Shown here: piece after piece, positions 52-5,669 of the stretch
Position numbering within the stretch: the first letter of the stretch is position 1
How the letters are laid out: each line of letters opens with the position of its first letter
DNA from: a virus
IMG/VR virus record: IMGVR_UViG_3300000494_000001
Coordinates: 1-10,456 of that record
Direction: 5' to 3' (one strand)
DNA: 10,456 bases
Position numbers and translations under genes: made by a program
The notes under the pieces: generated by a model
The model's input: the letters and a program-made list of their open reading frames with translations, nothing else
Databases searched by the model: none
Told to the model about the DNA's origin: nothing

Positions 52-654
52 TTATTTATTTTTTACTTCAACTATAAAATTATCATAACCTAATTTTTTT
101 AATTCATTAGATAGTTTAATTGCATTTTCTTTATTTTTAAATGCACCAACTTGAACACGATATAAAATATTATTTTCAGTAGTTTTATTGTTTTTTATTC
201 TATCAATAAATGTATTCCATGTAATAGGTTTACCACTTCTAATATTAGCAGGGCAATTTTTACCACTCCATTTATTATGTTGAACAACATTCTCAATAGA
301 TATATTATGTTTATTCATTAGATATTTTACTAATTCAATAGTATTTTCAATAGTTTTATTAAAATCACCATCACTATTTACACACATTTCAATTCCTATA
401 CTATTTAAGTTACCATCACCCCTGCCATCTCCACAATGCCAACATTGAACACTATCCTCATAATGTTGAATAATCTGCTTATCATCTACTGTATAATGCC
501 ATGTAGCATTACTACCATTATTAATATATTTAGCATGATTTAAAGCATTAGCACCTTTATTTATGTTACCTGTTTCATGTATGGTAATATATTTACATTT
601 ATTAATTCCTGTATAGTGATTTTTATTATTAGATAACATTTTGGTAATTTTCAT
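52..654 (-). CDS. Endolysin: N-acetylmuramoyl-L-alanine amidase (Amidase_2/PGRP fold) with C-terminal SPOR peptidoglycan-binding domain
   Basis: N-terminal motifs ITIHETGN, WHYTVDD, WHCGDG and NSIGIEMC, plus HNKWSGKNC (His-x7-Cys, the Zn-ligand spacing of T7-lysozyme-type amidases). C-terminal YRVQVGAFKNKENAIKLSNELKKLGY is a classic SPOR signature. ATG at 654 follows a GGGGTG RBS and overlaps the upstream stop (TAATG). The last 3 codons and the stop lie inside the ITR. Confidence 0.9.
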   Translation of the reverse strand: MKITKMLSNNKNHYTGINKCKYITIHETGNINKGANALNHAKYINNGSNATWHYTVDDKQIIQHYEDSVQCWHCGDGRGDGNLNSIGIEMCVNSDGDFNKTIENTIELVKYLMNKHNISIENVVQHNKWSGKNCPANIRSGKPITWNTFIDRIKNNKTTENNILYRVQVGAFKNKENAIKLSNELKKLGYDNFIVEVKNK

Positions 655-1667
655 TATACAAACACCCCATTTCTTAATAAATTTTTAATTTCTTCTTGTT
701 CTTGATTAGTTGCATTAGTTTCCAATACTATTTTATCACATTCTATATAGCCTGCATAATCTCCAATTCTACCATATTCAACTACTGAACCACCAAAAAT
801 ATTATTATCTTTAGTATATGGTATATTTCTATTTACTTCTATAAAACATCTATTAATTTTATTCTTATAAACATTACTAATACTATTAATAACATTACCA
901 TTAGATTTTTGAATAAATGGTATATTCATACCTATTAAGCCTTGAACACTTGCAACTATTTCATTATTAAAACTGCTTTTAATATTAGCTGTTAAAGTAC
1001 CACTATATAATTCTATGGTAAATGTTATAGTCAATTTTTGTCCTATAACATATTCAGTATTTAGATAAACCTTATCTAAAAATGGTAAATGTAAAATACA
1101 TTCAGTATTAATAAAATCATATATATTATTATATTTTAAAGGTACTTCAATTTCTCCACCGTCAATATCGAATGAATAAGTTGATATTAAGGTACTTTCT
1201 ACCCCACTATCAAAAGTACCTAATAATATATTGCTTTTATCACCTAAAATATCATTAGGAATATCAAAAGGCAATATATATAATGAAGTAATAAACTGTC
1301 CATAATCTACAATTTGCAACCCATCTGTATAAAAGCGTGCTTTAGATAATTCTGTTAGTTCTGATTGATTAGTTTTATATAGATTAACAAAAGTTCCTAA
1401 CTGTTCAACATCTTTAGTGGCAATATAATCATCATCTAAATAAAAATTAAAATTTAAATCACTTGTTCCAATTGATTTTTGTAAATAAGTTCCATAGTTA
1501 TTAATTTCATAAGTAAACCCGCCCCTTCTATAACTATATGCACCCTTAAAAGTATAGCCATCATTAGCAGTTATAATAATATTTTTACCTGCTTCTAAAA
1601 AATCACCATTTGAATAATTACAAGTAGCATTAACAATAGTTCCTGTTATATAAACCCTTCCTGCCAT
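654..1667 (-). CDS. Tail knob/tube protein, C-terminal portion (phi29 gp9-like); may be fused to the upstream ORF by a frameshift
   Basis: C-terminus GYIECDKIVLETNATNQEQEEIKNLLRNGVFV resembles the recalled phi29 gp9 C-terminus ([32 protein letters not shown]). I prefer the ATG at 1667 (MAGRVY...) because it follows an AGGGGG RBS and sits just after the upstream stop. The ORF-track start at 1691 lies inside the upstream gene. Confidence 0.5.
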   Translation of the reverse strand: MAGRVYITGTIVNATCNYSNGDFLEAGKNIIITANDGYTFKGAYSYRRGGFTYEINNYGTYLQKSIGTSDLNFNFYLDDDYIATKDVEQLGTFVNLYKTNQSELTELSKARFYTDGLQIVDYGQFITSLYILPFDIPNDILGDKSNILLGTFDSGVESTLISTYSFDIDGGEIEVPLKYNNIYDFINTECILHLPFLDKVYLNTEYVIGQKLTITFTIELYSGTLTANIKSSFNNEIVASVQGLIGMNIPFIQKSNGNVINSISNVYKNKINRCFIEVNRNIPYTKDNNIFGGSVVEYGRIGDYAGYIECDKIVLETNATNQEQEEIKNLLRNGVFV

Positions 1668-1669
1668 TA

Positions 1670-2101
1670 TTATACGCCCCCTATAGTACATAAAATAGTT
1701 GTTTTAACATCTTCAAAAACAACATTTGAATTATATATATTACTCTCTTTTCTTACTTCACTTGAATAATCAAAATCATAATAATTATTATAATTTGTAT
1801 GTCTTGTAATATTACCGTATGAATTTAATATATCATCTTTAAAACTCATTAGTACATCACATTTTAAAGTTAAATGATATATTTTATTAGGAAATACTTC
1901 AACTGTTTCAATAAAATAATATCTTTTAAATTTATCTATATATACATAATTAAAATTTATTAAATCATCATATTTTAGTACTATTATAGGATTGTAAATA
2001 TTAACTTCATCTTTAAATTTAACATCTATATCAGTAACAAAATCAATAACCTTGTTTATAGTATTTACACTACTTTCAGTATTATAAGCCTTAACAATCA
2101 T
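1670..2101 (-). CDS. Tail knob/tube protein, N-terminal portion (phi29 gp9 N-domain-like)
   Basis: FNYVYIDKFKRYYFIETVEVFPNKIYHLTLKCDVLMSFKDDI parallels the recalled phi29 gp9 N-terminal segment (SYIMFQN..WFYAFVTELEF..VTYVHFEIDVLQTWMFDI). The ORF-track start at 2110 is a GTG. The ATG at 2101 (MIVKAYN) is preceded by a TAGGAGTGG RBS at about 8 nt. Confidence 0.45.
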   Translation of the reverse strand: MIVKAYNTESSVNTINKVIDFVTDIDVKFKDEVNIYNPIIVLKYDDLINFNYVYIDKFKRYYFIETVEVFPNKIYHLTLKCDVLMSFKDDILNSYGNITRHTNYNNYYDFDYSSEVRKESNIYNSNVVFEDVKTTILCTIGGV

Positions 2102-2115
2102 TAATACCACTCCTA

Positions 2116-3395: not shown

Positions 3396-3941
3396 TCAAT
3401 TTAAAATATTTAAAGTAACAACACTATTTACATCCGTTATCATTATATTATAAATATTAAAATCTGTCAAATACCTATTGACTTTATCATAGAAGTCCAC
3501 TTCTTTTATTTTAGTTCTTATAATTTCTTTATTACCTTCATTACCTGTTACTATGTTTTCAACTGTAGTATTTTCATCATTATTAATAAAATCTTCATCA
3601 TTATAAGCACTTACTTTATTAGTATCAGTTCTAGTATTATCAGTAGTCATATTACTAGTTGATAGTTCTGTAATAGTTTCCTTATAATTTGTTAGTAGAT
3701 TTTCACTATCCAAATAATTTAATATAATGTTATTCCACTTATGCATAAATTGATTATTTAAAATACTAGCAAGTTCATTAAGTTCTAGGTTTTCAACTAT
3801 TTCTGCAACTTCTCTATTGCCATACATATTAATATAGTATTTATCTAGTAACTTACTATCTACAAAATTAAATATATCCTGCCCCGGCTGTAGTTCATCC
3901 ATAGTTTCAAATAGATTAGTTAAACATTCTTTTACTTTCAT
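3396..3941 (-). CDS. Hypothetical morphogenesis protein (candidate scaffolding protein by position directly upstream of the capsid gene)
   Basis: 181-aa ORF with a helical N-terminal half and an acidic, N/T/D-rich low-complexity centre. Its ATG overlaps the upstream stop (ATGA) and follows a TAGGAGTGAG RBS. I recognise no family. Confidence 0.55.
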   Translation of the reverse strand: MKVKECLTNLFETMDELQPGQDIFNFVDSKLLDKYYINMYGNREVAEIVENLELNELASILNNQFMHKWNNIILNYLDSENLLTNYKETITELSTSNMTTDNTRTDTNKVSAYNDEDFINNDENTTVENIVTGNEGNKEIIRTKIKEVDFYDKVNRYLTDFNIYNIMITDVNSVVTLNILN

Positions 3942-4429
3942 CTTCTCACTCCTATTCTTAATTTTCTATTATTAATATCAATCATCATTTTAAATACTTG
4001 TAATTCATTCTTTACCTTTACTATATTAGGTATAAATCTTCTTAAACTATCAGCACTTAAAAAATATGTTAGGAAAAATTCCATGCTTTCAGCTATTTTA
4101 TATAGGGTATATAATTCAGTTGCCATTATTGATAGTCTTTTTAAATCACTTGATAACATATTTAGTTTCATAATCATATCATTAGTTTTATTATTAAATT
4201 CACTAAAAAATATATGAAGTTCAGCCCTGTTTACTTTTAACATTCTATCAAAATTTCTTTTTACTGTATTCAAAGGAAATTCAATAGTAGAAATATATTG
4301 ACTTACAATGTATGCGTTGCTATCATCAACACTATTTAGAATATTTATTAATTGATTTAAACTATTTTCTAATATAGTACATGATGAATAGGATTGATAC
4401 ATATTATTTTTTACTGCTGTTAAACTCAT
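3938..4429 (-). CDS. Hypothetical structural/morphogenesis protein (predicted largely helical; possible head-tail adaptor/lower-collar substitute)
   Basis: 163-aa ORF preceded by an AAGGAGAGGG RBS and translationally coupled to the next gene. I recognise no motif. The functional suggestion rests only on its position after the portal gene. Confidence 0.5.
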   Translation of the reverse strand: MSLTAVKNNMYQSYSSCTILENSLNQLINILNSVDDSNAYIVSQYISTIEFPLNTVKRNFDRMLKVNRAELHIFFSEFNNKTNDMIMKLNMLSSDLKRLSIMATELYTLYKIAESMEFFLTYFLSADSLRRFIPNIVKVKNELQVFKMMIDINNRKLRIGVRR

Positions 4430-4483
4430 TTAGCCCTCTCCTTTTCATCTTCTTCATCTTCTGTTTCTTTATCTTCTGTTTTT

Positions 4484-5467
4484 TCATCTTCTTCCAGCAG
4501 GTGCTTCATCAGCAGGTGCTTCATCAGCAGGTGCTTCATCAGCAGGTGCTTCATCAATGTTTTCTATATTAGTATCTTTATCTTGATTTAAACTAGTTAT
4601 ATAACTAATATTTTCAAGGCTTCTAATATTCCAACTACTATTAAAATCTACTGTTATATCTAAACCAAATAAACGGTTTATTTCTTCTAATGCCCTTCTT
4701 CTACTGTTTAGCATATCATCAACTAATGGATATAAACTATCTGAATTAGTTGTAAATTCTTCTTTAGTAATTCTTTCTTTTTTCATGTTATAGTTAGCAC
4801 TTAAACCAATTTCATTATAAAAACTTGCTTTTATATATTGCTCAAATTCAATTAAATCTCTTAATGTTCCTCTATAATCTGTATTAGGATTGACTTTTAA
4901 GCCATCGAATAATTTAGTTTCAGCTATTACCCCTTGTTTACCATCAAATATATTTTTTAAGAATAGTTCGGCACTCCTAACAGTATTATCATCATTAGCA
5001 CTAATTAAAGTTGTATATCTTTTATTAACATTTGCTAATATCATTGTTATCATATTTTCATTTAGTATAAATGCATATCTTTGAAACAATGGTAGAAGTC
5101 CAACATTACAACTATCATTACTAATAACAATACAATCTTTATTAATATCTAATGTATTATTATAGTTCAATGCAGGTATAGAAACAGTTGCTTTAGTTGG
5201 TCTATTATATACATCAGGCTCTCCACCTAAACCACCATTTACAACATAAAAATCATTACCAATTTTTAGAAATATAGCAAACCCATTTGTTTGCAATAAT
5301 ATCTCAAGTTCTTTAGAAGGTATTGTTTCTGGTAAATTATTATACTTAAACATAGCATTAGTACGATTAAGCATATAAGCAATAGTATTTTTAATATTTG
5401 TTTCTTTATCCATATAATCAAAATCCCTTGATTTACTGCCTATAAAATACTTATCTACTTTAGCCAT
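4484..5467 (-). CDS. Portal / upper collar (connector) protein, phi29 gp10 family
   Basis: Collinear motif matches to phi29 gp10 as recalled: YNNLPETIPSKELE (W.NLPPTI..LE), GEPDVYN (QRDVYN), ISNDS, LISANDDNTV (LIRANDNNQ), NMKKERITKEE (NLEKKERMVTDE) and INRLFGLDITVDF (INELYGLNVKVKF). The ATG at 5467 (MAKVDKY) follows an AAGGGAG RBS and overlaps the holin stop. The ORF-track start at 5494 lies inside the holin gene. Confidence 0.85.
   Translation of the reverse strand: MAKVDKYFIGSKSRDFDYMDKETNIKNTIAYMLNRTNAMFKYNNLPETIPSKELEILLQTNGFAIFLKIGNDFYVVNGGLGGEPDVYNRPTKATVSIPALNYNNTLDINKDCIVISNDSCNVGLLPLFQRYAFILNENMITMILANVNKRYTTLISANDDNTVRSAELFLKNIFDGKQGVIAETKLFDGLKVNPNTDYRGTLRDLIEFEQYIKASFYNEIGLSANYNMKKERITKEEFTTNSDSLYPLVDDMLNSRRRALEEINRLFGLDITVDFNSSWNIRSLENISYITSLNQDKDTNIENIDEAPADEAPADEAPADEAPAGRR
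4496..4555. repeat. Perfect 15-bp tandem repeat x4 (AGCAGGTGCTTCATC on plus strand) encoding (DEAPA)4 at the portal C-terminus
   Basis: Four identical head-to-tail units at 4496-4510, 4511-4525, 4526-4540 and 4541-4555. The unit length is a multiple of 3. Confidence 0.95.
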
Positions 5468-5669
5468 TTTTTGTACTCCCTTCTTTATTTTCAAGTCTTA
5501 CACATAATTCTTTTAATGTTAATGTATTATTTTCAATTACTTTAGTTAGTTCCTTCATTTGTTTATCATATCTTTCGTCTTGCTTCCAGTTCTGATAGAA
5601 TAATGCTATTGATACGGCAATAGGAAAACCTAGCCCGTTAATTAGTTGCATGATTGTTTCAAAATTCAT
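5460..5669 (-). CDS. Holin-like protein, BhlA/UviB family
   Basis: 69 aa with a single N-terminal TM segment (GLGFPIAVSIALFY) followed by a charged coiled-coil tail. The LFY...K...E.Y pattern and the roughly 70-aa length match BhlA/UviB holins of Bacillus and Clostridium elements. RBS is AGAGGGA. Confidence 0.6.
   Translation of the reverse strand: MNFETIMQLINGLGFPIAVSIALFYQNWKQDERYDKQMKELTKVIENNTLTLKELCVRLENKEGSTKNG

Follow-up and report, generated by a model that had tools for sequence, protein, structure and literature searches.

The 10,456-bp IMG/VR record IMGVR_UViG_3300000494_000001, analysed here at full length and called the window, is classed as 100% complete, has inverted terminal repeats (ITRs) at its ends and carries its genes on the minus strand throughout. 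Its portal gene, which encodes an upper collar connector of the phi29 gp10 type, is annotated as an open reading frame (ORF) at 4484..5467 (-), giving 327 aa from the ATG at 5467 to a TGA stop at 4484..4486, and is followed by a gap of 54 nt (4430..4483) before the next gene. Comparison with related phages suggests, at a probability of about 0.9, that this spacer holds the distal end of the acidic portal tail, displaced out of frame, because close relatives run their tails in frame to the next gene and because the window's tail falls within the family's ranges of length and charge only when it is followed into the +1 frame. The same comparison shows the stretch to be former portal coding sequence, in the frame and at the position that the family uses. 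An earlier note on the window had proposed that the gap is a detached acidic portal end lying one base out of frame, and this proposal is strongly supported by the tails of the close relatives.

The junction downstream of the portal gene

The annotated portal protein ends ...NIENI-DEAPA-DEAPA-DEAPA-DEAPA-GRR-TGA. The DEAPA units (4496..4555, -), which make up the proximal array of the tail, are encoded by four perfect 15-bp repeats, GATGAAGCACCTGCT (GAT GAA GCA CCT GCT), and Tandem Repeats Finder placed this array at 4495..4556 with a period of 15, 4.1 copies and 100% matches. The gap is also repetitive, with an imperfect period-15 array of 2.9 copies and 89% matches at 4450..4492, 2 nt from the DEAPA array. 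At the join of the two arrays the frame breaks and meets an early stop, GGA AGA AGA TGA (G-R-R-stop; 4484..4495, -), the GG of which is located at 4494..4495. Read in the +1 frame, the distal remnant (4426..4494, -) is EEDEKTEDKETEDEEDEKERAK, and its TGA (4426..4428) overlaps the ATG of the next gene. This frame (4494..4429) opens 11 nt inside the annotated portal ORF and not at 4483. The perfect repeats, the GG, the gap and the ATGA ending had all been described in the earlier note and were confirmed from the sequence. Its statement that the 54 nt form the largest unexplained spacer among the late genes needs a small correction: 62 nt lie between 2110 and 2173 in the structural block.

All 20,780 windows of 66 nt, in every frame of both strands, were scored for stops and acidic content. 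Only 4 are free of stops and reach at least 60% D+E, and all four are the remnant in the same frame; the acidic open stretch after the portal is not due to chance. The +2 frame of the gap is likewise open (KKMKKQK...), which is expected in DNA rich in GAA and GAT, and openness by itself is therefore weak proof. The remnant uses the codons that the genome prefers, as had been claimed (genome-wide, GAA 217 versus GAG 18 and GAT 181 versus GAC 13). TGA is a minority stop (3 of 14), and the portal TGA is the only one in the genome that lies outside an ATGA overlap. The other two both sit in such overlaps, at 3941/3938 and 3399/3396, so that the ATGA overlap reported for other junctions of this genome is indeed present there. 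An antisense ORF of 63 aa (4381..4572, +; …FIFFIFCFF…QQVLHQQVLH…) spans the remnant and the DEAPA array on a strand that is otherwise free of genes. It was rejected as a gene and should not be annotated, since it is a by-product of the repeats and all genes run the opposite way.

The gene that follows the portal (3938..4429, -; ATG at 4427..4429) encodes a 163-aa protein beginning MSLTAVKNNMYQSY..., which is kept in relatives and has 98 homologues, with no match in Pfam or PHROG. Its Shine-Dalgarno sequence, AAGGAG (4438..4443, -), was read from the sequence 8 nt before the ATG and lies inside the remnant; in relatives the equivalent position, within the last codons of the portal, is taken by AAGGTGAT or AAGGTAG. 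Junctions were measured from the portal stop to the start of this conserved gene at every locus holding both. The portal relatives number in the hundreds and are uncultured, mostly from anaerobic-digester, biogas and fermentation metagenomes. Throughout the close clade (portal core 73-97% identical; the junction can be read at ~27 loci), the tail keeps the portal frame up to between -4 and +6 nt of the next ATG without exception, and the 54-nt gap is found in the window only. The noncoding spacer that would have spoken against a displaced portal end was thus not seen in these relatives, which have no spacer at all. Endings in this clade include ...EEDDKKKVI-TAATG, ...EDKKKVV-TAA-t-ATG, ...EDEKKVV*, ...DEDERR-TAA/TAG-tttaat-ATG and ...EETKRR-TGA-tttaat-ATG, while portals ending ...KKEGSLI or ...DERGNLI overlap the next gene by ATGA. 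The ATGA-overlap junction reached by the window's +1 frame is shared with four relatives (L018, L036, L039 and L040). The position of the relatives' portal stop, within a few bases of the next ATG, suggests translational coupling.

Among the relatives from digesters and fermenters, IMGVR_UViG_3300010327_000061, 3300002166_000088, Ga0209409_1003206 and Logan ERR3486050_15195 have portal cores 81-97% identical to that of the window. They share with it the downstream gene and a tail starting at the FNSSW...NQDKD anchor. Unlike the window, they carry other repeat units that remain in frame to the next gene, and none has DEAPA or the 54-nt gap.

Two further arrangements were observed at this junction. 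Six IMG/VR 3300045988 contigs with 52-65% portal identity (L064, L065 and L074-L077) have true spacers of 71-198 nt after a complete tail; these are kept within subgroups and may contain either a regulatory element or a small gene. As parallels to the window they were rejected, since they follow complete tails and are acidic in no frame. In the Logan contig ERR11420259_17180 (L038:1150..1330), a tail ending ...EEVPEEVPEDEDKE-TGA directly abuts the final ~20 codons of the 163-aa gene, which lie out of frame (NELQVFKVMIDVNNRKLREG). This contig lacks ~430 nt comprising most of the downstream gene, and represents either a deletion variant or a mis-assembly.

Acidic repeat tails in the portal family

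Tail length and charge were counted from the conserved FNSSW anchor, and the FNSSW...QDKD anchor was found in all 122 portal sequences examined. After it, the window's tail reads FNSSWNIRSLENISYITSLNQDKDTNIENI-(DEAPA)4. In the 120 intact relatives, tail length ranges over 56-132 aa (median 108) and net charge over -16 to -53. As annotated, the window's tail is 53 aa long with a charge of -8, which is shorter than in any of these relatives and less acidic than in all of them. When the +1 frame is taken from the break onwards, the tail reaches 72 aa and a charge of -19, within both family ranges.

The repeat units differ by lineage (DGPE, EDKEP, DADV, EENI, EEVQ, EPTDEEI, TED, PDTD and others), and no other IMG/VR contig carries the DEAPA unit. 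Counting the two of the window, 109 tandem arrays were found across 28 distinct tail sequences, and 106 of them have a period that is a multiple of three. When portal pairs with cores at least 98% identical were compared, 879 of 1309 differed in tail length; L018 and L036, for example, are one DDTDAG unit apart, together with other changes. Copy-number variation that preserves the frame, as predicted from the perfect repeats, is real and well supported at the level of the family. The three arrays with other periods (11, 11 and 29 nt) are all at the extreme tail ends of L070, L072 and L085. There, 11-nt (AAGAAGATAAA or AAGAAGATGAA) and 29-nt stretches are duplicated at the end of the tail and shift the frame into endings rich in K and R (...KKRIQRKKQIKRR, ...KKKIKRR and ...MLKMKKMKRR), and similar endings are present in the portals P0012, P0013 and P0015-P0017. 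L085 additionally has an A7 to A6 change that creates an AGA-AGA-TGA stop near its contig end and leaves at least 56 nt of tail out of frame.

The portal C-termini of phi29, GA1 and phiCPV4 form the crown, a flexible or disordered segment of 22-24 residues on the capsid-interior side, which touches inner capsid proteins as well as packaged DNA (PMC8703570). The phi29 gp10 connector (PF05352; PDB 1h5w, 1fou and 6qyj), GA1 gp10 (7pv2) and phiCPV4 gp17 (7pv4) belong to the same fold family as the window's portal. In contrast to the latter, crowns of the phi29 type are ~22-24 residues long, non-repetitive and mildly acidic, with phi29 gp10 ending ...ENVSRGTSDGETNE, whereas in the window the homologous core stops near residue 305 and is followed by an added repeat tail, here broken in frame. 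The earlier note's appeal to the flexible acidic C-termini of phi29-type connectors needs a qualification: long acidic tails are found in Astrithrvirus-like phages rather than in phi29 itself. The connectors of these phages (Salmonella phage astrithr, YP_009857582.1, Astrid and assan; Acinetobacter phage Phanie; Pectobacterium DU_PP_III) have 41-45% core identity to that of the window. They have in common with it a genome of ~10-12 kb, the gene order ATPase, small gene, connector, small gene(s), capsid, and a long acidic low-complexity tail. The tail of astrithr is ~150 aa long, rich in Q, N, D and E and without perfect tandem units, and it stays in frame to 2 nt before the next gene. The window's clade differs from astrithr in its origin from anaerobic digesters, its guanine-plus-cytosine (GC) content of 26% and its two genes between portal and capsid. 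The window's tail belongs to the acidic-tail class of these miniature Astrithrvirus-like phages.

Origin of the frame break

The remnant would correspond to the distal 22 codons of the acidic repeat tail, which is located at the portal crown, facing the capsid interior. A net +1 break at ~4493..4495, exactly at the join of the two period-15 arrays, would bring the portal frame into the AGA-AGA-TGA reading of a GAA-GAA-GAT-GAA tract, with a stop 54 nt early. One extra G had been suggested as the lesion; the GG is present, but a deletion of 3n+2 bases is equally possible. A genuine recent indel, with a short-tailed portal being made, is the reading that we favour, at about an even chance. The mutation would have hit a low-complexity tail that is hypervariable, under weak constraint and evolving through replication slippage. 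The phage would then make a portal with 53 aa beyond the FNSSW anchor and a net charge of -8, and the 163-aa gene would be translated from its own strong AAGGAG site. Portal termination would then occur 54 nt upstream, but the AAGGAG 8 nt before the ATG makes such independent initiation plausible. We infer that the break is real, that the phage tolerates the short tail and that this tail is a disordered polyanion inside the capsid. The distal tail appears to tolerate changes of frame, since frame-changing events are seen in L070, L072 and L085.

The break may instead exist in the contig alone, as an extra base or a mis-joined strain-variant path, with the portal itself continuous at ~349 aa, ending ...DEAPA-EEDEKTEDKETEDEEDEKERAK and overlapping the next gene by ATGA. 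We consider this possible, at less than even odds. An artefact would explain why the read-through product matches the family in length, charge and type of junction and why the remnant shows no decay. The tail is also a place where assemblies fail. L003, L005-L007, L009, L019, L024, L025, L062, L063, L066, L068, L071 and L073 end within it. Among the short Logan contigs L044-L052, nine in number, all but L045 begin exactly 78 nt before the next gene, and L045 begins 59 nt before it. L030 (ENA UOOK01045083, 1..1364) is chimeric, its tail ...EEDVEDDTKE running in frame into an MreB-like bacterial protein, and the only other frame-broken relative, L085, is broken in an A-run near its contig end. 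As the tail is a systematic assembly breakpoint, tail lengths in the databases are probably biased towards short. On the other hand, the break in the window is at a GG, outside any long homopolymer; collapse of 15-bp repeats would alter the copy number and not the frame; and the contig is a complete ITR-bounded genome of 10.5 kb with no other frame anomaly. Assemblies from short reads generally contain few single-base errors in their consensus. The position of the break and the otherwise intact genome argue for a real mutation.

Several observations weigh against a genuine indel. No second independent assembly of the strain was found in the collections searched. The junction-spanning pattern, with or without the extra base, recovered from IMG/VR only an unrelated acidic gene (L015), and a DEAPA portal of ~349 aa was absent among 1379 homologues. 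In its 90% cluster the portal is accompanied by just two proteins, whose tails differ from its own, and the 181-aa neighbour has no exact copy elsewhere. Furthermore, the tail region is hard to assemble, with many contigs breaking inside it and one chimeric there, and the annotated tail is shorter and less acidic than that of every intact relative, as would be the case for an artefact in a functional gene. The remnant lacks decay, having no stop and keeping the preferred codons, which is as expected of a very recent event as of an error. Low-complexity coding DNA commonly undergoes small indels or errors, and a tail broken in this way, its out-of-frame remnant still intact, is an ordinary case of this kind.

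Programmed or otherwise efficient +1 frameshifting at AGA-AGA-UGA-A, with the stop in the A site as in release factor 2 (RF2) or antizyme, is very unlikely. It would yield a short portal ending ...APAGRR and a long one ending ...APAGRR-EKTEDK...ERAK. Skipping the U of UGA would indeed lead into an open acidic frame that ends in the family's normal ATGA junction, and UGA is a minority stop in this genome. The tRNA-Arg on AGA, however, cannot re-pair with GAU, and AGA, which accounts for 79 of the 109 Arg codons, is the most frequent of them and not a hungry one. No convincing Shine-Dalgarno-like stimulator or AGGAGG-like element lies just upstream of UGA-A. Local RNA is no more structured than shuffled sequences (z = -0.70), and an RNA structure was rejected as a stimulator on this basis. 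The site resembles the +1 frameshift of prfB (RF2; CUU UGA C with an upstream Shine-Dalgarno sequence) in having a UGA at which a +1 shift restores a long frame. It differs from prfB in lacking a slippery P-site codon, a Shine-Dalgarno stimulator at the right spacing and conservation in relatives. The two-frame layout is not kept, as ~27 close relatives use one continuous frame and L085, the sole other broken relative, is broken elsewhere by the change in its A-run. The AGA-AGA-TGA motif is simply EEDE-coding DNA read in that frame. Transcriptional slippage was rejected because no long A/T homopolymer precedes the stop; the only run, A6 at ~4478..4483, comes after the TGA and cannot rescue the frame. 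Decoding of TGA as an amino acid (tables 4 or 25) was also rejected, as the zero frame meets TAA five codons on. A mixed dodecamer of short- and long-tailed portal subunits, arising from a real break that is used through +1 shifting at a useful rate, is highly doubtful; if the shift were used, indels in the repeat tract could act as a contingency switch that tunes the amount of polyanionic tail in the capsid.

It is extremely improbable that the gap is a true noncoding spacer or regulatory element, or encodes a separate acidic peptide (MKHLL-EEDEK...) that starts at an ATG within the array and is unrelated to the portal. The +1 ORF (4426..4557) does hold TTG and ATG codons within the repeat, and the distant relatives described above do have post-portal spacers. 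Those spacers, however, come after complete tails and are acidic in no frame. The in-array ATG codons have no preceding Shine-Dalgarno sequence, close relatives have no spacer, the fold gives no Rfam-style structure signal, and the composition and 3n periodicity of the gap are those of family tail codons. Of the mechanisms first offered for the window, all of which take the gap to be a displaced tail, a recent indel and a sequencing error remain the two to be considered, while programmed frameshifting finds little support.

Genome setting and meaning of the tail

The assignment of the portal to the phi29 connector family is clear from profile and chain comparisons. The Pfam profile PF05352 matches it at 69.5 bits (cut-off 25.6) over profile positions 20-277 of 281, and phrog_2038 (upper collar connector) matches at E 6.6e-37. 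Similarity to the phi29 connector in PDB 1h5w/1fou (E ~1e-15) pairs query residues 39-305 with chain residues 29-304, and 7pv2 is matched at E 5.5e-14. An alternative start is available at an upstream TTG (5494) in the ORF listing; MAKVDKYF is the start of the portal's database cluster-mates. The genome around the portal is that of a protein-primed podovirus, with a gp16-type packaging ATPase, a protein-primed PolB, a phi29-type major capsid protein and the ITRs (PF03175, PF05894 and PF25622 match neighbouring genes).

Between the packaging ATPase and the portal lies a 69-aa gene (5460..5669, -) that overlaps the portal start by 8 nt and has a weak match to the holin family phrog_4898 (E 1.6e-5). 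The same small gene is present at this place in L039, L085, L086 and astrithr; identity as a holin would make its position odd. The split tail knob, a 146-aa ORF (1670..2110) and a 345-aa ORF (654..1691) with GGGGG in their overlap (1670..1691), had been flagged as a further frame anomaly. As a second frameshift, which would have pointed to homopolymer sequencing errors, it was rejected. L001 and L012 carry the same two tail-knob genes, ...CTIGGV-TAA-TAA followed by ATG-MAGRVYITG, in a conserved arrangement in which the G-run serves as ribosome-binding site (it reads GGAGG in L001), and the second gene most likely starts at ATG 1667. One homologue of the 163-aa gene (P0149) is an NCBI record from a contig binned in a metagenome-assembled genome of a Tissierellia bacterium (GX981_02235). 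This bin, the GC content of 26% and the digester origin of all relatives hint at a low-GC anaerobic Firmicute as host.

For annotation, the 54 nt should be labelled a displaced portal end, with the tail flagged as truncated or frameshifted, in place of an intergenic or regulatory label. If the break is real, the phage that dominates its sample carries a portal tail that is shorter and far less acidic than that of any intact relative, and the distal part of a tail that is conserved in kind and hypervariable in sequence would be shown to be dispensable. Long polyanionic repeat tails in the capsid interior are not specific to the window and extend across an entire lineage of phages with 10-13-kb genomes; the twelve copies in a portal may form a polyanionic brush round its inner mouth. 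The literature yielded no paper dealing with what such tails do, and the words 'acidic' and 'low-complexity' are absent from a review of phi29-like phages (PMC11476376).

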